Shown here one piece after another: positions 26,811-51,515 of a stretch of 64,000 nucleotides of DNA. Source of the stretch: Botryllus schlosseri (taxonomy: Eukaryota); assembly GCA_051294905.1 (NCBI GenBank), contig CM119371.1:5334001-5398000 (forward strand), given 5' to 3'. Within the stretch, counting starts at the first letter, position 1. Each line of letters begins with the position of its first letter. The notes below the pieces were generated by a model. The model was given only the letters and a program-made list of their open reading frames with translations. It did not search any database and had not been told where the DNA came from. Both the position numbers and the translations under genes were made by a program.

Positions 26811-28173
26811 CTCGCAAGTAATGAAGTTCAAAGTGAGTTTGAAATCTCTTTAAAATTGATATTAGACTTTGTCCATCTCAAAAAAAATCGATATGTCTAT
26901 TTACTAAAAATTACCGGTGGTCAGTAACTAGTTATTTCTGCTTTTTCTTATTGGACGGTCTACCCATGGCAGTTTGAATTTCTACACTTTGACATTCAGA
27001 GCAATGAGCAGGGTTTCCGCTCCTTACTGTGCAAATATAACTCTTCGCAGGACCAAGGCCAGCGTATCTGAGCTCAGTTACGTTACCATACTGGAATCTG
27101 ATGGAATAGGTTTGCCTAAATCTGTAGGACCAATCTCAGCGTCAAGGCGCGGAAATGATAAGTACATTTCCCTTCTGATCCGTGGGGCGAAGACGAGCAA
27201 GGTCCTTACACCCGATCTGTTGGACGCAAGTACCGCGTTGGTGATCCCAGCATTAGTCATTTTGTGTTAATTGCAAAAATAAATTGAACAATTTCAGAAA
27301 TAGTCACACCTAATTAACTGCGAAAAGTATGCAACGCCTTGACGAAATCTACTTTCAACTAACAACCATGTTTTCTTGACACTAGTTCAGTACAGGCAGA
27401 AACAAAATCATATATTTTAAGCAGGGGTGGTCGAAGTAGTCAGACTTGATATCCGAGTAGAAGTTGAGGTGGCGATGAGAATTTTCACTCAATTGCAAGT
27501 AAAAACAGCAAATTGCCGGGCATGTCAAAACTATTTCAAGTGGAAGTAGAAAATGATTGTTTGGCAGACTACGTACGTAAGTAATTTCAAGGCTTGACTG
27601 TCGGAGACCATCGTAATCGAACTCAGTTAAAGACGCACTGCCCCTGGCTTTCGATTAAGTCATATCATTCTCGACGTCGCAATCATACATATGCAAACCG
27701 CTTGATTTTCGAAATTTTAAAACCAGAATTAAATTTACAACTGTCAACATTCAATAATCCGCAATTAACTAACTAGATCAGTTCCAAGGTAAATCACGAA
27801 TATTTATCATATCAGAATGGAAATGCATTTGAAAGAATGGTACTGGAAGAAGTTTTGACCCCTGAAACAACCTGCAGATATGCCACTGTTAGTAGTGATG
27901 TCTGTTAACCAGAAGTGGCTGTGAAAACATGGTGCAACCAGTATCACAATTTATGTCGAACGACTACAGTGTTTTCATAGTTGTTCTGGAGCCTATTTTT
28001 CTTAACATGCAGCTAGAACTAAAACTGACTACTAAATTCCGATACGCAAGTATTGCAAATGCGTTGTTCACATTTTAATGATGCAATTTGTTTAGATTTA
28101 TTACACGCTCAAACACATAGCAGGTGGTGTAATGAATAAATGCATATTCTGAACTTGTGATGAGCACTTCCAC

Positions 28174-28995
28174 ATGAAGATGAATGATCATCCATGCGAT
28201 ATAGCCAAGAATCCGTTCTCTCAAAAAGTTGACTGCAAGCCTAACACTTATTCACATGCTGGCATCAAGAATCATAACTGTGATATATGTGGGAAAGCAT
28301 TCTTTCATAAGTGCAACCTCAAGTCGCATATGGATATGCATGCCGGTAACAAAAATCATCAATGTTATATATGTGGGAAAAAATTCATTCGGAAGAGCCA
28401 CCTCTCGACACACATGGATATGCATGCCGGTAACAAAGATCAGAAATGTGAGATATGTGGGAAAGCATTTACTCAGAAAGGTGCGCTCAAGCGCCATGTA
28501 GATATGCATGCTGGCGTCATAAATTATATATGTGATATATGTGGGAAAGCATTCACTCGTAAGGATAGCGTCACGCGTCATATGGACATGCATGCCGATA
28601 ACAAAAATCATAAATGTGACATATGTGGGAATACATTTTTGTGGAAATTCGACCTGGTGTTAAAAATCATGAATGTGATATATGTGGGAGAACATTCATT
28701 CAGGAGAGCAAACTCTCGCGTCATATGGATATGCATACTGGTATCAGACACCATAAATGTGATATATGTGGGAAAGCATTCACTCAGAAGGATGGCCGTA
28801 AGCGTCATATGAATATCCATGCTCCCGTCAAAAACATTCCATGTTATATTTGTGGTAAAGCATTCGCTCAGAATGGTTACCTCAAACAACATATGAATAT
28901 CCATGCTGGCGTTGAAAATCATGGATGTGATATATGTGGGAAAGCATTCTCTCGGAAGGATACTCTCAAGATTCATATTAATAGACATTCTAGAT
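28174..28995 (+). pseudogene. Tandem C2H2 zinc-finger gene (ZNF-B), frameshifted in finger 5; may encode a truncated 4-finger protein
   Basis: Four intact fingers, then a ~25-nt deletion at ~28655 (GACCT|GGTGTT), then four more fingers in another frame. The original stop codon is split by a hAT insertion. Confidence 0.85.
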
Positions 28996-30161
28996 CAGTG
29001 GTTCCCAACCTTTTTCCATCCGCGTACCACTTCGAGGTTTTATGCAGTGCTCGCGTACCACCTTCATAATTTACGCACGACGTAGGCGGTAAAAATGTTT
29101 TCACCATTTATGTCGTCATAATCACGTTATTGACCTATGTGGGGTGTAGGGCGAATTTTACCTAAAAATTGGAGGATTTTGACCTAAAAGACTTAATTTT
29201 GACCAAATTTTGACTTCATCTACGCAAATTAGGTGTTTTCGCACAAAATGCTAAAATTACACTACTTATATTCAATTTTGGTAAAGATTGTCCTTCCTTA
29301 CGAAGCAGTATGGCCTGAAAAAGCCTTTTTGAGTTAAATTTTGACTTAAAACTGACAAATTTTGAAAAAACTTTATTTTAACGATATCTGGCCCAGTAGT
29401 TACATCACGTATTATGGAGGAGTTAATTAAAATTATTTGTGGTACAACGAAAGATACTTTCTTACATTCTCGGGTAGAAATTGTCTGTCTTTACTAAGTA
29501 GCTTGCAAAGAATGGAGAAATAGCCTACCGTTTAACAGCAGTAGTTGTTGGTTGACAACACTCAAACTGTGCGTACACTGCTGGTGATCCACCATGTTGC
29601 TTGATTCTGACAATGTTGTCATACATCACAATTATTCATCATGCGCTTCTTGATTAAATATCCATGCAATGCCCAAGCAGTCTTGCTTCTATTAGGATAT
29701 TACGATACGTTGAGAATAACACCATGTCAATTGTCAACCTATTTGTTTCGTTTGACAATTTATGATCCACGATGAGCAGACAATGGACCGCCTACAACGG
29801 TAGGCCTATAAAGTAGGCTTCAAGCTTTAAAATATCAAATCTACGATACAAACGAAATGAAGGGGTCAAAAATCTTTTGACTTTGTAAACAAGTTTGACA
29901 ATTTTTTGACTTAAAGCTCAATTTTGTAAAAAAAAAATAACCCTACTAATACCTAATTCTATTAAACTAGGGGCATTATCAGCCCGGGTTTATGAGATGC
30001 ATGGAATTGTTTTTTCACCACTAGTCAAAAAACTTCCAAAAATTCAAAGTCAAACCCACCTGAACTAATAACTTCGAAAAAAAACAGAATCTACTCGCGT
30101 ACCACCTGGAAGACCTTCGCGTACCACTAGTGGTACGCGTACCACGGGTTGGGAACCACTG
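28996..30161. mobile_element. hAT (Buster-like) MITE inserted into the ZNF-B stop codon
   Basis: TIR cagtggttcccaacc / ggttgggaaccactg. Perfect TSD ttctagat (28988-28995, 30162-30169). Confidence 0.93.
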
Positions 30162-30966
30162 TTCTAGATGATGCATGCTTGCACTATGTGTGCGGAATTT
30201 CGGCAGAAATGTTGACTCTGTTCATTCAACTTCGGTCTGATATACTAAGTTCAGCTAACGATTTCACGGATATGTCATTTCCACTGGCGACTAGCTTATG
30301 TTGCTTCGTACCTCATATTTCCTATGCTTCGATATGACCAATCGAGGTTTAAAGCGTTTTGCAACGGAAAATAGTACGAAACTATAATTCCCTTATAATT
30401 AACTTTTAGTGGTGAGGAGCCTTAGGTTTCACAGCAAAAATCTAATCATATCTCACCACTAAACTCAAATCATTAAAATTATTTCTTGAATCATTGTGCC
30501 CACCCCTACAAGTAACCAGTTGACAAAAAGGGGTAATCGGCTGTAAATGGAAATATTTGTGACATGATAACGGACACTGTTCAACCTCGTTGAGACGCGT
30601 TGGTACAATGATAGCTGTGCCATGTCGCAGATACCACATTCTTTTTCTGGTCTCTGTGGTTTTTTAGAATATTGAACGTATTTTACTGCAAGTCTCGCGC
30701 TATCATGATATATAATCATACGTATCTATGGTGCACATTTGTTACACGGATTTTTATTGAAGTTACTTATTTCATCAATACATGTGAAAGAGGCAACTGT
30801 CGTTGTACATTCGTTGATGCTGTCGGGGGATATGAATAATGCTGACAATCTATAAGCAGTGGTTTTCGCGACCCATATTAAGATTTGGAAGAGTCAAATA
30901 TTAGAAGTGTAATATCCCAACTAAAGAGTTCATGGATAGGTAGCCTACATAACACCAGATCCTGAC

Positions 30967-31285
30967 TTGCAGGTTGAGGCACCCACTGGAAAATGCTCTA
31001 TGAAAACAGAGCTGGAGGAACATATTGTTTTAGTAGGAGAACCAGGTGAGTATTACCTCACTCACTTGTCACCTCCCAATGGAAAAGGTCGTTTTTTGGC
31101 AAAAGAAACATATGAGTTTATTTCCGACACCGAACTCTGCAAAAACCTAACTGTCGTGGGATCAGACGGTACAGCTTCAATGACAGGGAGATTCAAAGGC
31201 TGCATTCGTGCAATTGAAAAACTTTTACAAAGACCACTTCTATAGGCTATCTGCTTGCTTCATGGTAATGAGCTGCCATTCTACA
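30967..31285 (+). mobile_element. hAT-superfamily (hATm/hATx-like) transposase fragment
   Basis: EEHIVLVGEPGEYYLTHL...VGSDGTASMTG...GCIRAIEKLLQRPLL*AICLLHGNELP, containing the C-x2-H motif of hAT transposases. Confidence 0.8.
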
Positions 31286-32272: not shown

Positions 32273-33164
32273 GTGTATTTTGCAGTAACACTACTTACTT
32301 GTCACACTTTGTACTTTGGAAAGTAGAGCGTAGTTTTAGGTTGAGTCGCTGTTTCGATCCTGATCCACCATCTTCATAGTTTTTGAAACTACAGCACTTT
32401 AGGGGTCTTTCAATATCTGTCTCTGTTGGAAGTTTCAAGATGTATTTAACATCGCTAATTCCACCCGTAATTCAGTGAAGATTTACCTCCTGAATTCCAC
32501 TTCAAATCGAGTAGCAACTAGCAAGCAGTGTTGGGACGACTCGAGTCATGACTTGACTCGGTGTATCAAAATGTGGATTGACTCGGGACTAGGAGCCAAA
32601 TTCACGAGTCAATTTCAAGTCATCGAGTAATCGGTGTCGATAAAAATCCCTGTATCTTGCATATGGTCGGACTGTTCGCTAAATGCTGGTGTAACCCGTG
32701 AGAGCGACCAATCTTTCAGTGATCGTGCGCTTTACTGAACCTCCATTTTTCTCTCTCAAATAAATTTTACAGATTACGTTGTCGTAAACTAGTACAGTTA
32801 AGTAATTTAATAGCAAAATGTCTATTTCTGTTCTTTCCCTAACCAAACCTCATGTTTTATTAAAATCAAATATAGTTAATACAGTCCACATCCATTAGCG
32901 TAAGCTTGAATTGTATCATATTAATTTGTAAATGGTAATGTATTACATCTTAGCAATTCGTCTCTCTATTCTCTATACTGTCACAATGTAGGCAATACCG
33001 CCTATCGAGGTTTAGGGCCTTCCACAGTGGAAATGCCATTGAAACTATAATTCTCATTGATAAATTACGGTAACTGTTAGGGACAAGAAGAGTATATTTA
33101 CAGTAGATATACGAATATAGCGACACGATATCAACACTAACCTACCATGATTTTTTTTTGTCCA

Positions 33165-33307
33165 CAGCATGTTGTCTATTGACCCATCTCGACGACCTTC
33201 TGCGCAATCGAGTAGTGTCCAGCTGCTTTTTGAAAGCCTACATGCCTAAAAAACTACCAACCATTTGCTTGCCTATCACAAATGTCAACGCGAGACAATC
33301 TTCACCG
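33165..33307 (+). pseudogene. PLK1: PLK1/polo-like exon remnant: end of kinase domain
   Basis: MLSIDPSRRPSA/VVSSCFLKAYMPKKLPTICL vs PLK1 KMLQTDPTARPT...GYIPARLPITCL. Donor gtgag at 33308. Confidence 0.75.
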
Positions 33308-33682
33308 GTGAGATTTCTTACAATTCCACAGCAAGTTTACGATTAGAGCTTGGCCAAAACAGATTTTTGAGCCAATACCGATAAAACCGATAACTAGCAC
33401 CTTCACAGATAAGCAAAGTCGGACAACTAAAACATTTTATTCTTTTTTGAATAAGATTAGCATTAGAATGATAGCAATTACCTTTTTTTGATGCTGAGAT
33501 ACGGCTAACTGAGTTTATGCGGACTCAGAAAGTAGAAGTAAAGTATTGGTACTAAAACATTGTTGATATTTGGCTCTTGGTGTGATGTGAATGTCGACTA
33601 ATTTTTCATGGCTCTCACTGCTTGGCTCCTAATCATTGCAGTTGATTTTCTTTTTTGATTTCCAAAATATGGTAAGCCTAAT

Positions 33683-33747
33683 TATAGTATAGTATAGTAT
33701 ATGGAGATAATATTTAGTAGTATAGTATAGTATAGTACGTATAGTAT
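33683..33747. repeat. (TATAG)n microsatellite
   Basis: tatagtatagtatagtat, two tracts. Confidence 0.8.
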
Positions 33748-33989
33748 ACAGATATTATAGTATTCCTGAAGAGGAACGGTGTCTTTATGGGTTCTTCTGT
33801 GTAATTCAAAGGGTGAGGAATCGGATATGAGTATATTTTGTTGTTGTGAAATATAGCATTGTAGCATAGCCTTGATGAATGTTTACAGTATCGGTATATT
33901 CTGTTTATTTCTTTGAACAGTGATGTAGTGGTAGTGGTACTAGTATACATTATGGTACCCTCAAGACGTTTCAGGATTCGACCCAATGA

Positions 33990-34205
33990 AGTAATGGCGT
34001 GGCAGCAGCAGATGATGGGAATGCTTTGGTATTGGAAAAATGTACTGAAAAAGAAACGCAAAAAACGTACATTTTGGGTGCATCCAATTTTATTGCGACG
34101 AGAGCGGTATGGTGAATACTGAATATCATCGCCTCATACAAGAGTATCGCCTGGAGCGTGTTTTGGAATATCGTCGGTACTTCCCGATGACCCCTGAGAA
34201 TTTTT
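33990..34205 (+). mobile_element. PIF/Harbinger transposase N-terminal fragment
   Basis: KRTFWVHPILLRRERYGEY...HRLIQEYRL...YRRYFPMTPENF matches the W.HP...GE...YFRM...F pattern of Harbinger nucleases. Confidence 0.75.
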
Positions 34206-34476
34206 TTTTTACTGTGGCGAATGAAAAAATCTGCCTGCCCTGCACTTGTGTCGTGGAATGTGTTGCTTCAGCTTGTGTCTAGATTTGTCAGTTTAGTTCA
34301 GGGGTCGCCAACTTGAAACTAGCCGCAGGCAACTTTTTAAATCTCGTAGAGAACACGGCGCGTGAATTCAATATAGCGATGAAATAGGCCTACGCCTCAA
34401 AGTACATAGCAGCCGCTAGATTGCGCAAACACGGCGGTCACGGTCCATCGGACCGCAGACAGCAAACCGTGTAGAA

Positions 34477-35715
34477 CAGTGGTTCCCAACCTTTTTCGAC
34501 TCATCGCCCCCTTTTGAAGCTCCGCACCGATCATCGCCCCCCAAATATTGGGAACCGCAAAAGAACACTTCGTCAGGCCCCCAAAACGTTGGTCTTTGGC
34601 CCCATAGGGTGATAAACCAGACCCCCCTCAGCCAGTGGGCTTTTAGTCGCTACATATCGACTATACCCTACTTCATGTACTGTTTGGTGGTAATCACCGT
34701 ATTTCACCTAAACGCGCGAAGCGCGACAAATTTATACAATTCATTTTGAATCGGTCAATATGATCGGGAATTGCATAGATATTGCTATCAATTTTATATC
34801 CTCTTTCTGGTCACGTAATCAGATTTTCCGGTAGAGCTTAGTGTGGTGTGTGTTGGAAAAGGTAGGACCCCTAAATAATAATCGTTGCTGTATTGACTTC
34901 GTTACATGATACTCTTTTGTGACCTCCTAGATCTGCTATGTCAGTCAGAAGATATGGAAATCGTCAAAACGTACCAAACTAAAAGACGCACATGATTTCA
35001 AATTGGTATATTTCTTTACTGGCAAATAATTTTCTCCTTGCGGGATGACATCTGTCCTGTAGGGTCAAGGTCGCCAGGACAGGAACATTCGGCGCCAGTC
35101 ATTGAGGTGCCTATGGGCAATTGAACATATATCTATCGAAGTTTTCGGTCAGCACAAGGGCATTCCTTTTCGGCCAAGGTCTTATCGCTGCTGATCGTTC
35201 TGGCGCACTTCTCGGAGTCGCATGTTACATGGCATCTAACTTCATATGTATTGGTGCGTCGTGGCCCAGTAATGGCCGACGCCGAAGTCTCCCATTTCCA
35301 TAAATCATTCGTATTTTTGTTGCGTGACTGGTATCCCAAGAAATATAAAAATATGGAATCGCGCGCAGCGCGAAAAATGTTTGAAAAAGTTGCACGAATT
35401 TCGAAAAAAGTTACTCCATAATTTATGTTAATTCACGAAATAATTTTGGGCCCCCTTCGAGTTCGGCCCCCCCCCCCCCACCCCAATTGGGAGGTTTTGG
35501 GTGCGGCAGTTACGGTTCCGACTCGCCAAAATAGCCGTTTTAACGCGCCATCGCCCCCTATCGCCCCATTCGTTGATTTCGCCCCCTATCGCCCCCCTCG
35601 TCCGTTTCGCCCCCCTCGTCCGTTTCGCCCCCCTATCGCCCCCTTCGTTATTTTCGCCCCCTAGACCGCCAAATCGCCCCCTGGGGGGCGATATCGCCCA
35701 CGTTGGGAACCACTG
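34477..35715. mobile_element. hAT MITE with tcgccccc subterminal repeats
   Basis: TIR cagtggttcccaac / gttgggaaccactg, TSD gtgtagaa/gtgtagat. Same family as 51516-52591 (inverted). Confidence 0.9.
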
Positions 35716-36225
35716 GTGTAGATGGAAACCACGGTTACGTTGGGTTGGGTTTGGTCAGGCGACTTGCCGTGTAGAGAAGCCTTTAACGGTGAGTAGGCCC
35801 AATCCCAGAATTATTGATTAAAATCTCTAATAACTTTGCTTCTACGGGTTGGAATTGCGTCAAATTTCTTTTGCAAGCAAAGAGAAAATTAATTTTTTTA
35901 TTAAATTGAAAAATTTTGATGTGCTCGGCCGTGGCTTCGGCTGGTTGGAATGGAGCCAAATTTGGTGTGCAGCCTTTTTTAGGCAACCTAACAATTTAAT
36001 CTGTGAATCCCCGGAATCTGAAAAAGTTGCTTTTAAACGACCCTAGTGGACAGTGCTATCAAAACTAAGTTGTTTGCCGAGCAGCAAGGAACGTATCATT
36101 TTGGTGCTTGGTGCTTGGTGCTACTGCATATTACACAGACTTTGAACGTTATTATCAACGAGACTGGGCAAAATCCAGCATCTCGGTGATTGGATTCGTG
36201 TTAAGTATTAACCGTCAAGCTAGGG

Positions 36226-36946
36226 CAGGGCCGGCCAACCCGTGGCCCGCGGGCCACATGTGGCCCGCGAGAAGGTTTTGAGTGGCCCGCGAGGTAATTT
36301 CCGAAATTAGTAATATTACCATAAATGGATTGCAAATTGTGAACTTGCAAGGACAACCATAATTTTGATTAGTCTGGCCGCAACACTTGAGATGTGATGA
36401 CTAAAATATCAGTTCCGACGCATTGGCAGATCCGTGAGCCAGTCACATTTTGGTAGATCTTCGTACACTACAATAAAGCAGAATAATTTGCGATAGATTT
36501 ATCAAAAGTAAAAATTTTCTACACGCTTCGCGCAACATGTTGTCACTCGATTCTTGCATTTAATATTGTTACCCTTTTCTGAAAATGAAAGAACGCCTAA
36601 TGTATCAGATTGAGTCCAACCATATTCGCGATTACGAGACAAAGTGTCGTTCAACATATGAGACCTGGCGTTTCCGCTCGCAGAAAGGCCGTCGACTATG
36701 AAACCTAGGCACAAAATGATTGACACATGTTGGTCCAAGCTTTCGATATCGATATGTCCAGGCGCGGAATAGTCCATTCCTGGCAAACTGAGCCCAGCGA
36801 TATGCAACAGGCCCGCAGTGTAGTCAAGTGACAATATTATTGACCTATGAACTTCGAAAATTTTTCGCGCTTGGCGCGGCTGGTGACCCGCGCAATAGTT
36901 CGTCAATCAAATGTGGCCCTTTGGCTGAAAAGGTTGGCCACCCCTT
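36226..36946. mobile_element. hAT (Charlie-like) MITE
   Basis: TIR cagggccggccaacc / ggttggccacccctt, TSD agctaggg on both sides, ggcccgcgggcc subterminal motif. Confidence 0.85.
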
Positions 36947-37172
36947 AGCTAGGGTGTTCATGTAGCTTGTATCGTGCCAATAAACTGTGCGAATTCTAGT
37001 TCTTGTCTGGCTCCATGCTGAGTATAAACTGTCTTTTTATAAGGTCATAAAACCTACCAATCCATATTTTAACCTAATATTGGGTTTGCAAAGAAAATGA
37101 ATTTTTCAGCCCTCATCACATTTGCATTACTATGCTTTCAAAGTTGTATCATCTTATTTCTTTACTTGACAG

Positions 37173-37319
37173 GTGCTACTAATACAGAGACACAGAAGCA
37201 CAAATGTCACAAGCATCATTCGCAGTACCGAATCATCGGACTTTTGTATGGTAGAATGGAAGCTCAGCTTGAGAAATTGATCTATACCCATCCAAGATTG
37301 CAGTCTGCTCTAAATATGG
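37173..37319 (+). pseudogene. PLK1: PLK1/polo-like exon remnant: kinase-to-polo-box linker
   Basis: Acceptor ttacttgacag. SDFCMVE/MEAQLEKLIYTHPRLQSALNM vs PLK1 DCHLSDMLQQLHSVNASKP. Phase-1 donor gttggt where (D/E)EAEDP would follow. Confidence 0.55.
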
Positions 37320-38234
37320 GTTGGTGTTTATGTAATCAGTAGTTGATTTCATTTTGAATCGACCTCCCTCTTACATGTAGGCCTACTTTTACTAATCAGG
37401 GATTTGATACCATTCACGACTGTAGTGACAACTGAAAAATATCATAAATTCTCTGTGCAAATCCAGTTTGTCAAATGACATTGACGCAAATCTGGCCGAT
37501 ATCTTGAAATCCATGTTATTCTCAAATTCATGTCAAGTTACGGAGATATGATCGCTCCAAATTACGGCTCTTGCTCGTATGTGACGTTGCTGAGAAGATT
37601 GTTGGGCTGTTCAAGCATTATTTTTCTTGATTTCAGTCAAATAGTGAGAAATAATCCGTTCCATCACGGAATCCTGCGCTCCGTACCATTCAGAGTTGAT
37701 TGATCAATGAAAATGATTGTTTCCATACTCATGTCCACTGCGCAAAGCTGTAAACCTCGATTGGTCTTATCCCAACATACTTTACATGTGGTACAAGCAT
37801 GTACGCATATTACTGGAAATGACATATCTGTGTAGTCCTGATCAACACACAGCATTGTCGCAAAGTGCAATGAAATAGGTGTGGCATTATATTGGTTGTA
37901 GTTACATATTCGAACTTTCCACGTCATCCATACTGGTATGGCATCATAATAAGCGCTACTCGAACACTCGACTCAAAGCCTAATACTCGATTCAATTTCA
38001 AATAACCCGGGTACTCGATTTTAACTGCCCTACGTATAACAAGTCGGATATCAAAATGGCACCATGAAATAAAATTTGAAATTACGAAGGTTTATCGGTT
38101 CAAAAAATTGGTTGTCGAATTTTACAGGTCCGCCAATTCATAAAGGTTGAGAACCACTGATTTAGATGTTCCCAACAAATAACTTATGTTGTTTTCATAC
38201 TGTCAATCCGATTACCTTTAATTTATGTTTTCAG

Positions 38235-38360
38235 TCGCTGATGGAAGTTTTTTAAAAAAAGACGCGCCATCACAGAAGCAGAGAATCGGTATTGCATATG
38301 ACAGATTCTTATTAACGTCGTTATCTTTACGATTGTAAGATCATTGACAGAGGTATCAAG
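38235..38360 (+). pseudogene. PLK1: PLK1/polo-like exon remnant: subdomains V-VIb, copy 1
   Basis: ttttcag|SLMEVF..RRAITEAENRYCI*QIL...YDCKIIDRGIK|gtaat vs PLK1 [32 protein letters not shown]...IHRDLK. Contains stops and frameshifts. Confidence 0.8.
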
Positions 38361-38962
38361 GTAATAATTGTAGTGTAGTTGTCTAATAAAACTAATTAGC
38401 GTGAATGCCTGTAATCTAATTTCTGGTTTTCCTAAAACTACAACAGAAGAGCTGTATCGTACGATACTAACCAAGCTCGATATACAGACATTTGGCATTC
38501 TTGTGCTTATGAGAAAGATTCATTCCATGTGCAAGGTTTCGTGAGCTCAGTAGCTCTAATTGTAATCTAATGTGTAGCCATCATTCTAATAACTGCCTAA
38601 TTTGGAGTAAAACTGCTTAGCTTTTATACTTCTTCTAGTCCAATTCGAAACAAACACTGTGTAGCTATCATTACTGTGTTGCTATCATTATAATTGTACT
38701 CCAATATGGAAAAATACTTTGTAGATGTACTGTAATTCTAATCCTGATATAACTTCATAAAGCTGAAAATTTTCTAGGTATCCAAGTCTGCAAATCTGCT
38801 TCTCCTGATCCTTGAATCTATTCCTATCCAAACACGGCATAAGTTTACGATATCAAATCCAAATCTATATTCGTATTATCGTTCCAATTCCACAAATCTT
38901 GATTCCCAAATATATTTGGCAATATACACGAGTTAGGAGTTAGTATCTGTTATTTGATTATT

Positions 38963-39167
38963 GTCAGTGATTTCCTCACTAGAATGTTGGCGAGTGACCC
39001 GTCTCATCGAGCTTCTGTAAAAGAAGTGCTTGTCAACGAGTCCTTCAGCGGCTACGTTCCATAAAACCTGCGCACAACCAGATTGAGCTGACGTCCAGGT
39101 TTCATTTCCCGGACTCTTCCAAGACAAAGATTTTGTTGACATTGTTCTCGAGTTGTGCAAAAGAAAG
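38963..39167 (+). pseudogene. PLK1: Chimeric PLK1-like exon: kinase C-terminus fused to an N-lobe segment
   Basis: DFLTRMLASDPSHRASVKEVLVNESFSGYVP*NLRTT runs at ~39098 into VSFPGLFQDKDFVDIVLELCKRK|gtgag (PLK1 [23 protein letters not shown]). Confidence 0.85.
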
Positions 39168-40047
39168 GTGAGATCTTTACTATGCTGTTGAGATCTCAAA
39201 CAGCAGTGGTGGCAATTGCATTAGCTCAGTAACGTTCATTACTAGCAGACTTGAACCACTCGGTAATTCAAGTTGTCTAATTGAGCGAAATGCCGGTCAT
39301 CTAATTCTAATCTACATTTTGAATACTGCTGTTACCATCTCGTTTCAATTCCATTATAATTACTGGTTTCCTGATATGCCACAAGAGAACTTCATCATGC
39401 TAAACGAGCAAAACTCGGTGTCGTGACATTTCCCGTTATTGTGCCGATGAAAAGCAGCTCTGATGTGATAAGAAGTCGACTTGATTTTTATTTTATTTCG
39501 TTTACCGAACCAAGTAATTCTAATCTAATTGAGACAAATGTGCAGCTGTAATTCTAATGCTAATCTGGTTTGGAAAATATAAAAATTTCTCACTGTAGAA
39601 AGCTGTAAACTATTAGACGTATCGCATCATACCTACCGTGTAGTACAAAGCTTCGCACAATACTGGAAATGACATTTCTTGGAAGTTGTCATCAACCCAC
39701 AGCATCTTCACAAAGTGCAAGAAATCGGTATGCTCGAAAAATACCAAATCATTTTTAATGTGATGTACAACTGGCATGTTGTTCCACATGGTCACATAAA
39801 ACGTCCATATTTGAACTTTCCGCATCATCCATTCTGGTGTGATGTCATAATGAGTGATGAGCAAATATTGGAATAGAAGCCTAATACTCGATTTAGACTC
39901 AAATCATTCAGTTACTAGATTTTGCCCAGCACTGCGTATGTTACGTCAAATATCGAAAAAGCAGCAATAAAGAAAGTTTCTAATTCGAAAGGTTCGTCGG
40001 TACTAAAAATTTGCTACTTAAAAAGGTTGGGAACCAATAATTTAGAT

Positions 40048-41154
40048 CAGGGGTGGGCAAACTACGGCCCGCGGGCCGCATGCGGCCCGCCACACCCTTC
40101 TGTGCGGCCCGCGAGAGTCTAAAGAAACTTTTAAAAAATATTGATAAAATCCGTACTAAAAATCGAATTAATGCAGGGACTTCAATAAACTTTTTCTTAG
40201 TATATTTCACCATGATAATTCGGAGACAGTGGTTCCAAAACTGTGGTGCGCCCCCCTCCACTGAAAAAAATTTTCGCGCTCCGCGCGATTCTCATTCCCA
40301 TCATGAGCATTGCTGTGTATTTAGTCTAAATTTCATATTGAAAAATTCTTGATCCACATTCGTAACCTTCCGTGCCATCTAACTATGTGTTAAGTTTGCT
40401 AGCACCCTAGTTGCGTTTTGTGATTTGACGATAAGGGTGGCGCGAAATTTTTCACCATCATAAGGGGGGGGTGCCTCAAAAAGTTTGAGGGCCACTGTTT
40501 TAACGTAAATACTTCCTTTCTTTATGTTTAATTTCTGGCGCGACAGCCCCATCTCAAGGCCCACGCAGTTTGAAAGGTTTCAACTATATACTAAACATCA
40601 CAGAAATCCTAAACGAGATTGACGTAATTCGGATAACGAGTGGGATTTCATATTGGCCACTTCAGTCTTAATTATTTCAGTGATGTGCTTATACAAACGA
40701 TTTGCGCGTGTCTTAGGCAGATTCGTTCTCTGCATGCGTAGAATTGGGGTATTTATATTTTATCCACACATCGTAGATGCGTGTTTGAAGCTAACACGGT
40801 TATGATACTGTGAGTATTGTGTGTCCTGGAACTGAACAAAAAGTGGAATTAGTAAATCTATGAACAGATCGCTGCTCATAGATTTAAATTTCAATCCTGG
40901 TCTAAGAATCGGGACAACCGATTTTCATCTATATAGTTTTGAAAAATTGGTTATTGAGGTCGGTCAGCCAATGAAATCTCGCCATGTTTCTGACGTGTGT
41001 ACGATATCATCAAAACATTGTTTGTTTTGTTTTAAATAGGAACATATATAATCTCCATGTCCTCACTATATAATCTCAATTTTATATAATGCGGCCCGCG
41101 AATGGATTTAGATGTTGAATGCGGCCCGCGAGCTCAAAAGTTTGCCCACCCCTG
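40048..41154. mobile_element. hAT (Charlie-like) MITE in a PLK-like intron, with an internal MITE at 40227-40497
   Basis: TIR caggggtgggcaaa / tttgcccacccctg, perfect TSD atttagat. The paralogous intron at ~38160 shows the empty site. Confidence 0.92.
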
Positions 41155-41220
41155 ATTTAGATGCATATAATATTCTTGTTTTGATTCTATCAATCCTATC
41201 AACTTAACATTTGTTTTCAG

Positions 41221-41345
41221 TTGCTGATGGAAGTTTACAAAGTAGATGCGCCATCACAGAACCAGTGACACATTACTACATGTAACAGATTCTGCTTGGA
41301 GTTTTTCATCTTCATGATTGTAGGATCGTTCACACAGATATCCAG
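41221..41345 (+). pseudogene. PLK1: PLK1/polo-like exon remnant: subdomains V-VIb, copy 2
   Basis: ttttcag|LLMEVYK/SRCAITEPVTHYYM*QILLGVFHLHDCRIVHTDIQ|gtaac. Confidence 0.85.
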
Positions 41346-41904
41346 GTAACATTGCTGGCAGTAGTCGCAGATTAATACAAAACTACTGGATTTTCAAAAT
41401 ACACTACTTGGTTTCAACTTAGAGTTAATGACCATTAAGATTCTGCAACGAATGAATACCTGATGACACAAATTACTAATTACAATTGAGCTAGTAAATA
41501 TCGGAGATAGAATCACTGAATCAGTTTATCAAATGGACGGGAGTTTTATTTAGGAATGACAGGCGTGTCAACCCCCAAGACCCACTTTACTGGCTACATC
41601 ACTGTTTGTTGTTATGACTGTGATGTAGCAATGGCTGCAAGAACATCAAACAACAGAACATTGGTATCACGATTCTCGTGAAACGACGACGCATGTTTTC
41701 TAGCTGTTCGGCAATTGTTTTGGAAACGCATAACTAGAACTATGCACTTTTCATAACTACAACTAGAACTATTCGCGCTTCAAATCTGCAACTACAACTA
41801 AAACTACTCAAAAAACTTTACTCAGTTGGCCATCAACCAGCCAGATTAATAGTTTGTACAAATTTGTAAACTTGTGTATCTGAATGTGAGATTTGTATTG
41901 ACAG

Positions 41905-42068
41905 CTGGAGAACCTATCCCTGAACAATATGGGCCTGAAGATTGGAGATACCAGAGTCGACTGTGATGGTCAAACAAGTAGTACATCTTGCGGCACATCC
42001 AACTGCATTGCCCCGGAAGTTCTCGACAATAATGTACATAGTTTCAAAGATCTCTGGGTTGTGTGTTT
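41905..42068 (+). pseudogene. PLK1: PLK1/polo-like exon remnant: activation segment
   Basis: tgacag|LENLSLNNMGLKIGD-TRVDCDGQTSSTSCGTSNCIAPEVLDNNVHSFKDLW|gtgagt vs PLK1 [57 protein letters not shown]. FGLA is deleted. Confidence 0.88.
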
Positions 42069-43360
42069 GTGAGTATCACTCAACATTGATAAGGGACTTT
42101 CATGAAATGGGGTCGGAAGGGTCTGATATCTTAGTCAGCGGGACCAGGAGAAATCGAGTACATGACTGATTCCAGTTGAGTAATCCACTACCACTTATTT
42201 TGGCGTCACAATATTATGAAGAGTGCGGAAAGTTCAAGCATGTGCCTTTTATGTGGCCACAAGGAATATAAGGCCAGTTCCATATAACATTATAAACATA
42301 ATTCGATATTTTTTTCAACCTAGCCTACCGTATTTCATTGCACTTTCTGACTCTCTGACATCGGTAGATCGTGACCTCATAGAAATGTTATTTCCAGTAA
42401 CACTGCGTAGCTTTGTACTACATATTTTGTATGTTGCGATACGACTAATCGAGGGTTACAGCCTTCCATTAGGAAAACAGTATCAAAAGTAAAATTATCA
42501 TTGATAAATCAACTCTTATTGGCCAGAATTGTATCGTTTCAGTACTACAGAAAATCATTAAAATTAATACTCGATTCAGAATCGAGTACTCGCAGCATTG
42601 TGCCCAGCCCTAGTCGCGAGACATATTGAAATAGTTTGAGTTGAGTAGTCATGTTGCTACTCAAGTACAAGTATTTTTGGTCTAGTTTGTTAAAATACTG
42701 AAAACGGTGACATAGTAGTACCAGTATTTTAAAATCATAACCCATCGTGAAATAATGCAAGTAGGCAAACCCTACTCAAGTATTCCGTGGAAGTACTTTT
42801 TACCTAGTACCTCAATCAAGCAATAACAAAATATTACATCCTATACCTTGATACTACTTCTACTCAACCACGAATGGGAGTAATGATTCCCATGAATTGT
42901 GAAGTAAAAATAGAAAAGGAAGGTTTGAATGGTAATCAAGGCGAGTAGTTTTGAAAAGTAGATTTGGTCATGACATCGCATACTTTTAGTAACTGATCGG
43001 AGTTGGTTACATTCGAAATTGCGAGATCCATCTTATCGACTAACACAAATGACTGATGACATTACCGCCATTACCGTTCGATGCAATTTACTGAAATATG
43101 TTCAATTACCATGCTTCATGTGACACTTTGTCCTAATTGTTGTGACAATATCAAGCATAATAGTGATTGGAAAATATCCCAGAATTACTTTATATTTTAC
43201 GAAATCAAACGTATCAAAAATTAAGTAGCCTATTGTTTAAAACACTGTTGGATAAAAGCGGTAGCAGTACTTCTGCGTGTAACCGAGTATAGATTAGTGT
43301 CGTTACTTCTACTTGTGCATGAGTACGTTGAGTAATTTAATATATTTTTCTATCATGCAG

Positions 43361-43560
43361 GACTACACCATGGTGATTCTGTGTCCTCTGATGGCGCCGT
43401 GACTTGCATCGACCAGCAACGTAACTTCACTAACTACAAACTGGAACTGTTACAAGAAGACGGATACAATTACAATCACAGTTCAGGAGCTTGCCTGTGG
43501 TACACAGATTGTATCTTGGAAAGACTCCTGTTTGAAGACTCTACTCAAGCAGATTATTCG
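43361..43560 (+). pseudogene. PLK1: PLK1/polo-like terminal exon remnant (polo box 2)
   Basis: tcatgcag|DYTMVILCPLM/GAVTCIDQQRNFTNYKLELLQEDGY vs PLK1 [36 protein letters not shown]. Confidence 0.88.
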
Positions 43561-43665
43561 CGATACGCTCGATGCAACTTTGTGAGATTGTGTAATTGGA
43601 TTTTGAAATACGTTCATACATTTACGAATGAAATCACCAAGCTTTGCAACTGATTGTCTTATCAT

Positions 43666-43857
43666 CAGGGCTGTAACCAAGCCACAAGGTTACATGTCAG
43701 AAGTCCCTCTCACTTTCATAGTTTTAACTCGAAAATTAAGTCCACTCACCTCCGAATCAAATCCGTCCAAGTCATACTGTGTGTCACTATGATATGTTTG
43801 GTGACTAGTCTGGATTACTGCTCAGTCTCGAGCTCAGGTAATTTTGTTACAACCCTG
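43666..43857. mobile_element. Short hAT-like MITE
   Basis: cagggctgtaac ... gttacaaccctg. No TSD recovered. Confidence 0.55.
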
Positions 43858-44418: not shown

Positions 44419-47400
44419 TGCAGCAATTAGAGCTTATATTCTCTGATGATCTGTATAAAAGTACAGCTAACCAATCGTCTTGGTGCTCGGCTATACAATA
44501 CTTATCTCGAGAAGCTGTTGCCTTGGGTGAAGTTCTTCGTACCAGATATATGCTCAATACAATGGTTTATTTGACGTTGATGCAGTAGTAGCGTATAGAG
44601 TCTCAATCATAATAATCATGTAAAACACTTGTTACAGACACTTATGTACTTAGTCTGGACTCTCGAGTAATCTCAACAAGAAGTAGTTTCTTATTCGAGA
44701 CATAGCAAAATATCATGGACGAGTGATCACAGCGGAATAGCTGCATTATTTTCACTCGAAAAGGGAATTAATTACGAATAATTAAGGAAAAAGCCAATTA
44801 GATTATACGACCATGAATGACAAAATCGATTTACTATGTCGAATACAATTTTGGTACAGAAAGGTCACCCCGTCCCCCATTAAAAAGGAAATCGGATAGT
44901 AACAATCACGAGTAAAGACTTTTAATTTCAACGACCCTTTAAGTAATTAGGCCTACACGGGTTCGGTTTTAGTCTGAGCATTGCAAGAGCAAGGTTTTAT
45001 ATTGCTTTTCTAATATACAAGTTAACCTAAATTGGAATAACACAAAGAATTGAATCCTAAGCAAATAGTAAGCCTAACAGATACAAATACATCCACGTGA
45101 CAGCCCAAATCATCATGTGTGACCGCCGCTGTTCACGTGAAGGCAAAATTAACTTCAGTGTGTGGCCGGTTTATGTACAATAGTGGCCATTTCAAACATT
45201 GCAATATCTCGGTCGATATTGTGACTTAGAGTAACCAACATACTCAAGTCCGCGTAAACTTCAGTTTCGGGCCGTGGCCCATATGCACCAGTGTGTTCCT
45301 GGTCAGTGAAATTCGTACAAAATCTCGATCGATAATGTACATGTGTTTCCGGCGTACAACTGCTACTCAACTCATGTGTGCCTGCACTTTTGCGTCCACG
45401 TGCAGGCATCCTGGTGGAGTCTGGCATCGTTTTCGGTTGTAAAAACTGCGTAATTATCGTCTGCGATTCGTGGCATGTCTGATTCACACAGCCGTCAGCG
45501 TATAGCTGTTGGGGGGCTAGAGATACGGCATGGCTACGTACGCGTGTTGGCGCTATAGTGTCGGCCAATGATTGCAGATGTGGGATATCTTCGGTCAGTC
45601 GGTCGATCGTTAGCGGATATCGATACAGTTTCGTCGGTGAAATCGCGGCGAACTGTTGCTGTCGACTGTTGCAGACGTTGCAGTTGCAGTGCACGTGGTG
45701 TCGGAATCGTACCGAAGTATATTGCCAGGTCGTTGTTGTTGAGTAGGTCGAAATCGTTTCGATGAATTCGCACACATGAGTATGAGATTGGTACGCCGGA
45801 ACGCGGAGCGTGGACGACGGACACGTATATATTCGCCAACTCTGTAAAAAAACCTCACGACAGCATCACGTGGAAAGGGCATATAGCACTATTACAATTG
45901 GCACAAAATAACGATACAAGCATGAAAGAAAACACACAATCTATCAATAAGCGACCAGTCTGATAAGGCAAACCTAAACCTAATTATGAAGCTGTTGACA
46001 ATATCAGAAACAATAAAAAAGAATAAGGCACGGTATTCCCTGACAGCGTTGCAAGCAAGGGGTCAATCTCTGGCGCATGCAGAAAAAAATGTAGGGAGAG
46101 AACGTGCGAAAAAAAAATTTCTGCACGTGGCAGAAGTATAAATGTAAAATGTACAGAAAGTCTGCTAACTAGCGAACTCCTTGATGTAAGTCAAACATGT
46201 CTGTTAAATTGCAATCCAAGTACTAAATTCCCGGTGCGGCCGGGGTCATGGTTTACGTAATCTTGACAGCGGAGGTGCGATTGATAGGTACTGCTGAGTT
46301 TTGTAAAGATAATTCCAAACAACTCATCAGATTTCAACTGACACGCAAGGAGTTACTGAATAGCTGCTCTGCTCACGAGGCATGGCGTAATTGAAACAAT
46401 TTAAGGATTTATTAGATATGTCAGTCAGTAATGGAATTATCAGTCAAACTTACATTGATCAATGTAGGATGTTATCATACAGAGTACTGTTATATGTCTG
46501 CGATGATTTGAAAGCTGAAGTTAATATGAAATCACTTTTTGAAATGCCATCAGAACACCATTACTCAATAGTGGATTATTTGAATGAAGGATGCGTCATT
46601 CCGCAATGGTGTCTGGCGATTATGCTGAACCAGAAAAGCTGTATCGCGAAATTACACTTCTTCGCTAAAAGCGTTACGTAACTCAAGAATCCGTTGGGTT
46701 TGAAATCAGCGGAGCACGTGGCGATATGGAGTGTACCCTAAAACACTGTTTTAACATCGAAAGCTGAAAACCACATATGCGTTTTGTGTAAGGTATCCGT
46801 CAATGCATTGAAGAAAAAAAACACAACGATTTCCGTAACTATAATATTCCGTAATTTAAACGGGACCGTTATCTATGAATCCAGAACCAATTTACGCAGT
46901 TCAGTTATATCATCTGACCGAACAAGATATGTCATATTTATACCGAATTTTATGATAGGTCTTGCGCTGAGTACGTTGCATTGCGGCGTTCACAATGTTG
47001 ACTTCGAATTCACCGATTACACCTAAATAGCGGAGGCCATTATAGCTAAGTAGGTTACTCATGATACGCGTTGTATCGCATAATAATGCTTTTCGACATA
47101 ACATTCAAATGTACTTAAAATCATACACGAGGTTGCGGTACTGTTCAAACGTTTTATCGTGTAAACCAGGAGATTCGCTAAAAGAAGACGCATTCAGCCC
47201 TGTCTCGTTCAAACTGCCCGCAGATTGTTTAGAGCAAGAGCTTTATTCCCCAACCTCACAGCGAATTGGAACATCTTAAAATCCATTAACCATAAGTATA
47301 CCAGATATTACATCCAAATACATATATAGTCACTCCGGTTCACACTCACGCGCGTAACGAAATCACAGTCGCCGATTTCCGCATCTAATCCCCAAATACA

Positions 47401-48613: not shown

Positions 48614-50239
48614 ATACCTAGTCTCGATGATACCCCTTGAAACACTTCACACTATCCGGGTTGTAGATAATAAGTGGGGGCGTTTCACGCTGTTGTGACG
48701 CATTTTGTTGATAACATGCGATAGTGGTGAATCCTGAATCTTTTGTATACATAATCAGTAACGAAGTATGTATAACGATATTTTTCTAATTTTGGTCAAG
48801 TACATTTGCCGACTTGCATGACTTATTAAAGTAGCTGTTTTTTTTAATTACTTTATCTCACAATTTTATAGACAGAACTGAAGTTTATGTTAAGTGTGAT
48901 CTAAGATAGGGCTGTTTAGCAGTTACGTTATGAACGCCATTGGTGTCACGGTAATTACATATAGTTCCTAGTGTCGGAAACTGCACAAATTTGTGATGCC
49001 TACAGTCGTTTTGCGTACGTTATTACTTTTCAAATCTGCATTTTCCACTTCCACTTGAACTAGCTTGGGCCTATCGTTGGGAATCACTACTTATAGGCCT
49101 ACTTGTAAGTCATTCTTCTCATAGAACTATGAATCACTGGGATAAGCGACTGAGTTAACAAAACACACTATTTAACAACAATATGGGCCGCTAGCAACAG
49201 ACTGGTACGTACTGCTTGATTTCTAAAACACGTGACTAGAACTAGAACACTCATTTTTCAAAATCTTCGAATGGAACTTCTCACAACCCACTAGTTCGTT
49301 GACCGTGAACCAACATGATTTGTAGATAGTCCAAGTCTGCTCTGCTCTGGCCGCAACCAATATTGAAAGCAATTGCGACACGAACTTCAAGAACCAACGC
49401 TTATAAGTTGTCAGCACGGATCGGATGTAACAGCCCAGCGTTTGTTGCTGACCTGACAGCTTCCCACGAATGTACAACGAGATTTGCCTCTTCACATGTA
49501 GGCTATTAATCGGATAAGTCAACGCAATATGTTGTAGGTAATGTAGGCTATGTATGTTGAGAATGTGCACCAGAGATACATAGTAGCAGATGTACTTATA
49601 GAGAATAATAGCGTGAGACATCTTAAATACGTTCAACGTTCATGATAATCATTTGAGACATCAAGCAGTTAATCGAGGTATCGTTGTACCAATGCGCCCC
49701 GACCAGCTGACCAGTGCCCGTCATAACGGTACAGAACATGAAATTCGTAGTCGGTACCCCTTTCTGCCAACTGGTCACGTATAAGACTGGGCACAATGAT
49801 TTGAGTAAAGTTTTTAAATATATGATTTTATACCAAATAATTAAAGAATTAGTCACCGTAAATACTAGTTTATTCAAATCCAAATTTTTCTACTGCAATA
49901 CCTTCGCTTCTAGTGGTTGAAATGGAGCCAAATTCGGTGTGCATCATCTCTTCTGACAGCCTAATAATTTTATGGGGTTGATAGAAAAACTTTAAAACTT
50001 TTTTTTTTGGTATTTTTCAATGATAAATTCAGAACTTTCCACTGCAAGAATTTCGCTTCTACTGGTTGAAATTGAGCGAAAGTTGGTGCGCAGCGTTTAT
50101 TTGTAACCAACCTAACAATTTTATCAAGTAGCAAGTGAAATCTGACGGAAAACTTGTTTTTTGAACAGTCATATTGGATATTCATATGACGCTTGAGGTT
50201 AGCCGTCCCAGTAAATGCTTTCCAACATACATCACATTA

Positions 50240-51343
50240 TTACTTTTTGTTACCAGCATGCATATCCATATGACTCTTGAGGTGGCCCTTCTGAGTAAAT
50301 GTTTTCCCACATATATCACATTCATGCCTTTTGGTTCCAGCATGCATATCCATATGACACTTGAGGTGTTCCTTCTGAGTGAATGCTTTCCCACATATAT
50401 CACATTCATGATTTTTCACGCCCGCATGGATATCCATATGATTATTGAGGGTACCCTTGCACACAAATGAGTTCCCACATATATCACATTTGTGATTTTT
50501 GGTACCGACATGCATATCCATATGAAGCGAGAGCTGGCGAATCTGAGTGAATGCTTTTCCGCATATATCACATTTGTGATTTTTCACGCCAGCATGGATA
50601 TCAATATGTTTGTTGAGGCTACTCTTCTTCACAAATGAATTCCCACATATATCACACTTATGATTTTTTATACCGATATGCACTTTTATATGGTGTGTGA
50701 GGTCTCCCTTCCAAGTGAATGCTTTCCCACAAACATCACATTTGTGATTTTTGTTACCGGCATGCATATCCATATGATGCGAGAGGTGGCCATTCTGAGT
50801 GAATGCTCTTCCACATATATCACATTTGTGATTTTTCACGCCAGCATGGATATCCATATGTTTGTCGAGGCTACTCTTGTGCACAAATGAATTCCCGCAT
50901 ATATCACATTCATGATTTTTGTTACCGACATGCACTTTTATATGGTTCGTGAGGTCTGCCTTCCGAGTGAATGCTTTCCCACAAACATCACATTTGTGAT
51001 TTTTGTTACCGGCGTGCATATCCATATGAAGCGAGAGGTAGCTCTTCCGAATAAATGCTTTCCCACATATATCACATGTATGATTTTTGACGCCAACATG
51101 GATATCCATATGACGTTCGAGGTTTCGCTTGGCAGAGAATGCTTTTCCACATATATCACATTGGTGCTTCTGGGCGCCAATATGTATATCCATATGAGAC
51201 TTGTACTGACTCTTCCAATTGAATGATTTACCACATATATCACAGTTGCGATTTCCGATGCCAGCATTTTCACAAGCATTGAGCTTGCATTTCACTTTTG
51301 GAGAAACTGGTTTCTTGGCTATATCGCACAGATGACCTTTCAT
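50240..51343 (-). CDS. Tandem C2H2 zinc-finger protein (ZNF-C), 367 aa, 12 intact fingers, AGVKNH/AGNKNH linkers
   Basis: Intact ORF. Paralogous to ZNF-B including the 5' flank and acceptor tgtttag. A degenerate extra finger follows the TAA TAA stop. Confidence 0.92.
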   Translation of the reverse strand: MKGHLCDIAKKPVSPKVKCKLNACENAGIGNRNCDICGKSFNWKSQYKSHMDIHIGAQKHQCDICGKAFSAKRNLERHMDIHVGVKNHTCDICGKAFIRKSYLSLHMDMHAGNKNHKCDVCGKAFTRKADLTNHIKVHVGNKNHECDICGNSFVHKSSLDKHMDIHAGVKNHKCDICGRAFTQNGHLSHHMDMHAGNKNHKCDVCGKAFTWKGDLTHHIKVHIGIKNHKCDICGNSFVKKSSLNKHIDIHAGVKNHKCDICGKAFTQIRQLSLHMDMHVGTKNHKCDICGNSFVCKGTLNNHMDIHAGVKNHECDICGKAFTQKEHLKCHMDMHAGTKRHECDICGKTFTQKGHLKSHMDMHAGNKK

Positions 51344-51515
51344 CTTTATGTCGAAGTGATCACTACACGCTTACAGAATCTTCACTTTATTCCACCACCT
51401 GCCACGTATTATAGTGTTCAATTAATCTAAACAATTTGCATCATTAGAATGTAAATAGTGCATTTGCAATATTGGTATATCAGAATTGAGTGGTTAGTAA
51501 TTCATTCGTATAGAC

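Follow-up and report, generated by a model that had tools for sequence, protein, structure and literature searches.

Probable unprocessed PLK1 pseudogene debris in a repeat-rich zinc-finger cluster of Botryllus schlosseri

PLK1 pieces between two zinc-finger arrays

PLK1 is normally a low-copy essential mitotic kinase. In the window, i.e., the whole 64,000-nucleotide stretch of Botryllus schlosseri DNA analysed here, eight plus-strand pieces forming seven blocks, F1-F7, extend from 33168 to ~43569, all align to PLK1, and sit between two C2H2 zinc-finger arrays. Residues are given on P0207, the PLK1 of Phallusia mammillata (UniRef name).

28153..28995, + strand: C2H2 zinc-finger array flanking the pieces, interrupted by a frameshift and a MITE (28996-30161)
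33168..33307, + strand: F1, copy A, remnant of the kinase-end exon, P0207 residues ~256-290; frameshifted, phase-2 acceptor (AG at 33166), phase-0 donor (GT at 33308)
37173..37319, + strand: F2, copy A, remnant of the inter-domain linker exon, aligned to P0207 residues 335-368; frameshifted, acceptor phase compatible with the F1 donor (AG 37171, GT 37320)
38235..38360, + strand: F3, copy B, exon for subdomains V-VIb (residues 108-149) with a damaged HRD motif, two frameshifts and one stop
38983..39103, + strand: F4a, copy B, kinase-end exon, residues ~256-296; two stops, acceptor position and phase identical to F1, terminates in a fusion
39099..39167, + strand: F4b, copy C, N-lobe exon, 3' end only (residues 85-107); donor GT at 39168
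41221..41345, + strand: F5, copy C, exon for subdomains V-VIb with a damaged HRD motif, one frameshift and a stop at the codon where F3 also has one
41905..42068, + strand: F6, copy C, subdomain VII-IX exon with the activation segment; without a stop, 24-25 nt shorter than the references, four codons deleted after the DFG-position Asp
43361..43569 (end approximate), + strand: F7, copy C, last exon with the second half of polo box 2 and the C-terminal helix, residues 508-575; frameshifted
50178..51370, - strand: second flanking C2H2 zinc-finger array, facing the one at 28153..28995 and belonging to its family

The minus-strand array consists of a long open frame, then two stops and a last degenerate finger (Pfam zf-C2H2 E 4e-64), and the stretches 28153..28995 and 50510-51498 are 71.5% alike. 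The preliminary description had tied the PLK pieces to the zinc-finger cluster; in the window this link is seen only as the position between two similar arrays.

Judged by match scores, the pieces are of PLK1-subfamily origin and not derived from PLK2, PLK3, PLK4 or other kinases. Frameshift-aware alignment to P0207 scored 72 for F1 (shuffle maximum 37), 48 for F2, 81 for F3 (33), 75 for F4a (39), 84 for F4b (33), 106 for F5, 111 for F6 and 84 for F7, with 60 shuffles per piece and shuffle maxima of 33-42 over the eight pieces. P0207 gave the top summed match among 107 animal references (661, next 651) and is also the best-matching reference for F2. In PDB, the top matches of F4a, F4b, F5, F6 and F7 are PLK1 and not other kinases: 12 of 14 matches for F4a (E 0.024), 12 of 12 for F4b (E 7.7e-4), best E values of 1.9e-5 for F5 and 2.8e-7 for F6, and 26 of 28 matches for F7 (best E 0.086), the last being the polo-box piece at 43361. 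F6 scored 30.5-33.5 bits against PLK1, 20.3 against PLK3 and 17.7 against PLK4; the respective values for F5 were 27.5 for PLK1, 24.0 for PLK2 and 21.1 for PLK3. On the PLK1 profile, F3 reached 13.9 bits, F6 41.2 bits and F7 16.4 + 10.2 bits (best null 7.4); F7 also aligned at 84-103 over four references (shuffle maxima 39-52), and it gave no Pfam polo-box match at E<=0.05. F6 alone as a homologue-search query returned 29 candidates, none at E<=1, and Rfam gave 0 matches at the gathering score.

The weakest piece is F2, which the animal PLK1 profile misses. It tops a linker-only scan (48, runner-up place 38), a score reached by 0 of 40 shuffles, and in a scan of the whole window on both strands (640 tiles) the seven top matches are PLK1 pieces, with a background maximum of 48, equal to F2. 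Whole-window searches with PLK1 (profile, both-strand tile scan, four animal references) revealed no further PLK1 piece in the window. Three further candidates, at 27080-27360 (+), 49250-49550 (-) and 43500-43650 (-), scored 25-43 with the four animal references and were rejected as background.

Copy structure, splice junctions and introns

All seven blocks that had been described lie at the positions, in the order and on the strand first reported. This order resets twice, which bears out at least three partial copies arranged head to tail: copy A with the kinase end and linker, copy B with V-VIb and the kinase end, and copy C with the end of the N-lobe, V-VIb, the activation segment and the last polo-box exon. 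The term "scrambled" was too strong, as each copy is colinear with internal deletions. Consecutive exons have intron DNA with splice ends between them; the direct fusion of F4a to F4b (block F4, 38983-39167; breakpoint about 39097-39110) joins non-adjacent PLK1 parts out of order.

The expected AG/GT splice dinucleotides are intact at 13 of 13 positions, which has a chance of 0.015-0.35 for 15-4% divergence. Several junctions match from both sides, and the pieces are thus genomic duplicates and not retrocopies: the F4b donor after residue 107 meets the F3 and F5 acceptors before 108, and the F3 and F5 donors after 149 meet the F6 acceptor before 150, while F1 and F4a have a phase-2 acceptor in common. 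These junctions presumably agree with vertebrate PLK1 intron positions. The genomic origin proposed beforehand is further strengthened by the duplication of an exon together with its intron in copies B and C (self-matches of 63% and 70%); exons joined without introns, as in a retrocopy, are not what is found.

37736..38234, + strand: remnant of an intron in copy B whose homologue in copy C lies at 39591-40011 and 41123-41220
40048..41154, unstranded: MITE lying within the intron of copy C; it has terminal inverted repeats, and 8 bp of target sequence are duplicated on either side (40040-47, 41155-62)

The MITE, which we take to be hAT-type from the length of its target duplication, was inserted after the B/C duplication, because the copy B intron carries an empty 8-bp site at 38160-38167 where copy C has the element.

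Such a coherent history of element and empty site makes it scarcely credible that a mis-join in the assembly created the order or the triplication. The copies, described from the outset as differing a lot, diverge by 25% or more, far above uncollapsed haplotypes, and in the public DNA run X1 a remainder of single-contig depth (7-9) is without any other letter at 39031, 39062 and 43441. An artefact would agree with the facts that no public-DNA contig spans the array or is shown across the F4 fusion, that the window's letter occurs in no X1 contig at 38310 and 41207, and that in the second run, X5, it occurs in none at most exon sites.

Lesions and divergence of the copies

About half of PLK1 is missing from the window when compared with the proteins of Phallusia mammillata and other animals, and residues 1-84, ~212-255 and 369-507 were not found. 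There is no Gly-rich loop, ATP-site lysine region or polo box 1, the HRD motif is damaged, the codons after the DFG-position Asp are deleted, and the C-terminal polo-box domain is represented only by part of polo box 2 (F7). Stops or frameshifts occur in 7 of 8 pieces, the short clean piece F4b being counted with its fused block. The window holds no complete open frame with the ATP-site lysine, HRD, a DFG-type motif and two polo boxes, and, as read from these letters, the array is no readable working gene.

Copies B and C differ by 0.25 over the exon, 0.21 over the near intron and 0.27 over the far one, exon and intron having diverged to an equal degree. The two V-VIb exons, F3 and F5, the pair best suited to dating, have a dN/dS of 1.23 (37 codons, a small sample) and are, by this comparison, neutrally diverged; they carry a stop at one common codon site, but in the form of different stop codons. 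Neutral divergence and a stop at the same codon together suggest that DNA already dead was probably copied. The lesions are not polarisable, because the parent gene is not seen.

We consider it unlikely that the pieces are recent dead members of a working or kinase-dead PLK1 family with live ones elsewhere, i.e., products of the birth and death of once-functional paralogues. The older pair, F1 and F4a, alone hints at past constraint (dS 0.73, dN/dS 0.44, p 0.15, 23 codons, not significant), and its upstream introns are unalignable. All splice ends are intact, and F6 has an open frame with at least 3 of its 4-5 deletions frame-keeping, whereas only 16-22% of indels in repeats of the window are multiples of three; three in-frame deletions of four in F6 would have a P of about 0.02 before allowing for eight pieces, and a hand tally over all pieces (5 of 13 in-frame) a P of about 0.07. 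The F3 frameshift at 38253 is absent from 8 and 5 other DNA contigs, and the F4a stop at 39062 from 5 and 9. Against such a past stand the neutral F3/F5 pair with its stop at the same codon and the fact that no signal is significant once eight pieces are allowed for.

We favour the reading that the array is pseudogene debris of PLK1, non-functional and unprocessed, multiplied within a repeat-rich cluster of zinc-finger genes, and regard this as likely. Unprocessed pseudogenes in tandem clusters keep introns and splice ends, carry stops and frameshifts, diverge neutrally, receive later transposon insertions, and lose or fuse exons by deletion. The array shares these traits, its splice ends and introns being at gene-consistent positions and its disabling mutations accompanied by neutral divergence; unlike in typical clusters, the source gene lies outside the fast-turnover families and the copy number appears high. 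PLK1 genomic segments with introns would have been multiplied by tandem or segmental duplication within the cluster, possibly through unequal crossing-over aided by transposon copies, and the copies would afterwards have been trimmed by deletions and then decayed. One deletion would have joined the kinase end of copy B to the N-lobe exon of copy C. For copies B and C the template was probably dead by the time it was duplicated, and copy A would belong to an older branch. The array itself would have no function.

Related sequences and the origin of the family

At each exon site, X1 and X5 each contribute 5-42 public-DNA contigs whose letter is not the window's, and the PLK1-fragment family is therefore far larger than three copies. 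Most public-DNA contigs at the exon sites differ from the window, often with flanking intron, and sequences ~86-90% alike to the window span exon plus intron. The lineage-level multiplication of PLK first suggested is thus larger than guessed, while the birth and death of functional paralogues that went with it would be no more than possible, the neutral F3/F5 pair pointing to the copying of dead DNA.

The multiplicity is very unequal between exons, with rough depth ratios of 7-9 for F4a, 28-42 for F3 and >100 for F4b, summed contig depth not being equal to copy number. This, together with the 47% of the PLK1-piece interval that is repeated within the window and the transposon copies at several junctions, would suit a Helitron or Pack-type DNA transposon that took up and spread PLK1 exon-intron pieces. 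We hold such a capture to be very unlikely, given that the pieces are colinear within each copy with long intron context kept, that self-comparisons of the window show no common terminal repeats or target duplication enclosing exon sets, and that the MITEs with defined bounds lie within introns, without exons. Repeat family A was tried as a marker of lost PLK1 introns and dropped, as 0 of 10 flank comparisons were better than their own shuffles.

A search of public runs listed no RNA run with the array, a result that speaks neither way. The RNA examined was one bulk run, probably from another individual, of which 6% of its size was read. At four exon sites its reads carry a non-window letter in 6/6, 8/8, 1/1 and 3/3 cases, and these 18 reads point to an expressed relative; the bin with F2 has zero RNA depth. 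Expressed sequences with 1-3 differences from parts of F4b and F7 would accord with live paralogues, but a single expressed parent gene could account for the reads. It is even less probable than transposon capture that the array was co-opted as a non-coding regulator of PLK1 that yields a spliced long RNA or small RNAs. The intact splice ends, the same-strand order and the closeness of some pieces to an expressed sequence would allow it, but at the four exon sites the reads never carry the window's letter, and in this run no site was found where many RNA molecules start or stop, the depth tracking repeats.

No PLK1 fragment array reported in a tunicate was found in the literature searched. A term search of the main text of PMC13746493 and PMC7540406 gave no mention of polo or plk, and in the excerpts of PMC4818882 PLK1 appears only as a differentially expressed gene. 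The closest published case found is Daphnia pulex, where, according to excerpts of PMC2680839, three PLK1 genes stand beside six partial copies, which lends some colour to paralogue birth and death. These copies, POLO-F to POLO-K, are truncated or rearranged and PLK1-derived, some with stops or chimerism, and three have some EST or tiling signal; the authors take them as pseudogenes or partial-duplication remnants (PMC2680839). As far as those excerpts allow comparison, the pieces in the window are likewise partial, lesion-bearing PLK1 copies; unlike the six of Daphnia, they belong to a family with tens of related sequences per exon, are far more decayed, lie between C2H2 zinc-finger arrays, and show no locus-specific RNA in the part of the run that was read. 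The family thus seems far larger than that case.

On a more speculative and rather improbable reading, the array would be a slice of a megabase-scale amplification of PLK1 and zinc fingers that began as a selected paralogue burst, some members being kinase-dead but translated, as exemplified by F6, which is in frame yet lacks the codons following the DFG-position Asp. Meiotic or germline conflict in an ascidian could lie behind such a burst, and expression, or the supply of small RNAs that tune PLK1, may persist in a few members.

As debris, the array is of modest importance; it preserves traces of recurrent duplications and deletions within a zinc-finger cluster and can confuse PLK1 annotation and read mapping in the host animal. 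If the family did begin as selected paralogues, it would be a rare case of a core kinase of mitosis and meiosis amplified en masse, and the question why certain lineages amplify their cell-division genes would become testable.

Identity of the PLK1 pieces

All seven same-strand blocks resembling Polo-like kinase 1 (PLK1) in the preliminary description were found at their places on the + strand, which makes eight pieces with the fused block F4 split.

PLK1 pieces in the window, with aligned residues of Phallusia mammillata PLK1 (P0207) and frameshift-aware scores
F1: 33168-33307, + strand, residues ~256-290, score 72
F2: 37173-37319, + strand, residues 335-368, score 48
F3: 38235-38360, + strand, residues 108-149, score 81
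F4a: first part of the fused block, + strand, residues ~256-296, score 75
F4b: second part, ending at 39167, + strand, residues 85-107, score 84
F5: 41221-41345, + strand, residues 108-149, score 106
F6: 41905-42068, + strand, residues 150-~211, score 111
F7: starting at 43361, + strand, residues 508-575, score 84

Shuffled controls (60 per piece) gave maxima of 33-42, and seven pieces exceed the background maximum of 48 from a whole-window scan (both strands, 640 tiles), which F2 merely ties. F2 ranks top at 48 in a linker-only scan (runner-up place 38), and 0/40 shuffles of the F1-F3 interval attain its score. F3-F7 reach 10-41 bits on a profile built from 107 animal PLK1 sequences, for which the best null is 7.4; F1 lies at that level with 7.3 bits, and F2 went undetected by this profile.

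Among solved structures, PLK1 was the top match for each piece searched (F4a, F4b, F5, F6, F7), so that the matches are to PLK1 rather than to other kinases, the polo-box piece F7 included. F6 matches best at E 2.8e-7, with PLK3 13 bits below, and F5 at E 1.9e-5, with PLK2 and PLK3 behind; PLK1 accounts for 12/12 matches of F4b, 12/14 of F4a and 26/28 of F7, though the best E of the last is just 0.086. In Pfam, F5 and F6 have Pkinase matches below threshold, and F7 lacks a polo-box match. P0207 comes first among the 107 references by a narrow margin (661 vs 651), chiefly via the linker, and the Ciona savignyi reference places 34th; this ranking makes the host a likely ascidian. A stretch at 49337-49486 (-), faintly similar to the Gly-rich loop region of PLKs, scored 58 with one distant PLK and 29-37 with animal references and was judged a chance match.

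Copy anatomy and lesions

The order of the pieces resets twice, as first described, which gives three head-to-tail partial copies: A (F1, F2), B (F3, F4a) and C (F4b, F5, F6, F7). The tandem array stands, while "scrambled" is too strong a word for it, because the pieces of each copy keep their gene order and have undergone internal deletions. Every one of the 13 splice dinucleotides expected is intact. At intron position 107/108 the F4b donor meets the F3 and F5 acceptors, and at 149/150 the F3 and F5 donors meet the F6 acceptor; F1 and F4a have a phase-2 acceptor in common, and phase 0 is shared by the donor of F1 and the acceptor of F2 (the donors of F1 and F2 were positioned by eye). These positions support one another, and they probably agree with the vertebrate PLK1 intron positions. 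Copies B and C also have intron DNA in common (37736-38109 vs 39591-40011, 63%; 38127-38395 vs 41123-41381, 70%), and the copy C intron is interrupted by a MITE, a transposon copy with terminal inverted repeats (40048-41154, 8-bp target duplication), where copy B has the empty site. The pieces are genomic duplicates, as had been proposed.

The array is not readable as a gene. Residues 1-84, ~212-255 and 369-507 of P0207 have no match anywhere in the window, F1, F2, F3, F5 and F7 carry frameshifts, and F3, F4a and F5 carry stops. HRD is damaged in F3 and F5, the two copies of kinase subdomains V-VIb, and F6 lacks four codons following the DFG-position Asp. Divergence between F3 and F5 is 25% (near intron 21%, far intron 27%), with dN/dS 1.23 (37 codons; Fisher p 0.79), and a stop interrupts the two at one and the same codon with differing stop codons, at this one site most simply a single inherited lesion. 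The F1/F4a pair has diverged further (dS 0.73; dN/dS 0.44, 23 codons, p 0.15), and its upstream introns cannot be aligned.

Birth and death of functional PLK1 paralogues is an unlikely account of these copies, although retained splice ends, the open frame of F6 and in-frame deletions hint at something other than pure decay. The chance that 13/13 splice ends survive is 0.015-0.35 at 15-4% divergence. F6 is stop-free and, at 164 nt, shorter than the expected 188 or 189 nt; three of its deletions are clearly in frame, and its end reads either as a frameshift or as two further in-frame deletions. In the repeats of the window (13 pairs compared), only 16-22% of indels are divisible by three; 3/4 deletions in frame in F6 gives P 0.02, uncorrected for eight pieces, and the hand tally over all pieces (5/13) gives P 0.07.

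Zinc-finger and repeat surroundings

The pieces are flanked by two C2H2 zinc-finger arrays that belong to one family, are 71.5% alike and face each other; the upstream one is frameshifted and interrupted by a MITE. Of the PLK1 interval, 47% is repeated within the window. An old repeat family has six long copies, all of them inside a 16-kb part of the 64-kb window (P ~0.005 if uniform), suggesting local duplication; their flanks align no better than chance, the B/C pair excepted. Capture of PLK1 pieces by a transposon is very improbable as the source of this array.

Repeats and other features of the window
26385-26818, 30221-30508, 32951-33105, 37610-38109, 39585-40011, 42151-42620: old repeat family, long copies
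28996-30161, 34477-35715, 36225-36944, 40048-41154: MITE-like elements, each with an 8-bp target duplication; that at 28996 cuts the zinc-finger array at 28153
427-1536 (-): third C2H2 array, 369-aa open frame, linker residues unlike the PLK1-flanking pair
33720-34200: short frame resembling a transposase N-terminus, presumably PIF/Harbinger-type
3293-3712 (-), 9464-11353 (-), 30940-31245 (+), 45155-45865 (-), 62826-63671 (+): open frames resembling, by eye, decayed retroelement or DNA-transposon proteins; nothing above the Pfam cut-off
57747-57946, 59229-59441: two oppositely oriented tandem arrays with a 21-bp period, possibly ends of one element
44419-44759, 48292-48627: recent direct duplicate, 340 bp, 95% identical

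The 33720-34200 element is probably young: among the matches listed it has near-identical contigs (6 differences/280, 10/475), at several-fold higher depth in runs X5 and X10.

A larger family of relatives

Four of 24 listed sequencing runs were compared with 33100-43700 at 80% likeness.

Contigs with a letter unlike the window, among the matches listed, in DNA runs X1 and X5
33214: X1 5, X5 5
38310: X1 14, X5 24
39031: X1 6, X5 10
39137: X1 42, X5 40
43371: X1 17, X5 19
43441: X1 14, X5 10

Intron sites flanking the exons have the same pattern of differing contigs, and exon plus intron are covered by pieces ~86-90% alike (both among the matches listed). Summed depth over median listed contig depth gives a rough ratio of 7-42 per site and >100 at 39137; these are not copy numbers, as overlapping unitigs, allelic variants and a repeat close by may raise them. 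Even so, the relatives still far exceed three local copies and a parent. Other contigs are free of two lesions of the window, the frameshift in F3 (38253) and the stop in F4a (39062). An assembly artefact is the least credible reading of the array, though among the matches listed no contig spans the whole 33100-43700 stretch. At 33214, 39031, 39062, 43371 and 43441, X5 has 0 contigs with the window's letter and X1 leaves a remainder (among the matches listed), and the PLK1 locus may be polymorphic between individuals in presence or sequence.

In a bulk RNA run (6% read), every read at each of four exon sites differs from the window (6/6, 8/8, 1/1 and 3/3); a relative is therefore expressed, and the window locus was not seen expressed. 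The bin holding F2 had zero reads in that run. Non-coding co-option of the array is still less probable than transposon capture.

We consider the array to be, probably, unprocessed PLK1 pseudogene debris that was multiplied within a zinc-finger cluster. The freely accessible literature searched, supplements aside, held no tunicate report of a PLK1 fragment array. The closest published case found is that of Daphnia pulex, in which three PLK1 genes are accompanied by six copies that are partial, rearranged or interrupted by stops (PMC2680839). The scale of the array here is notable.
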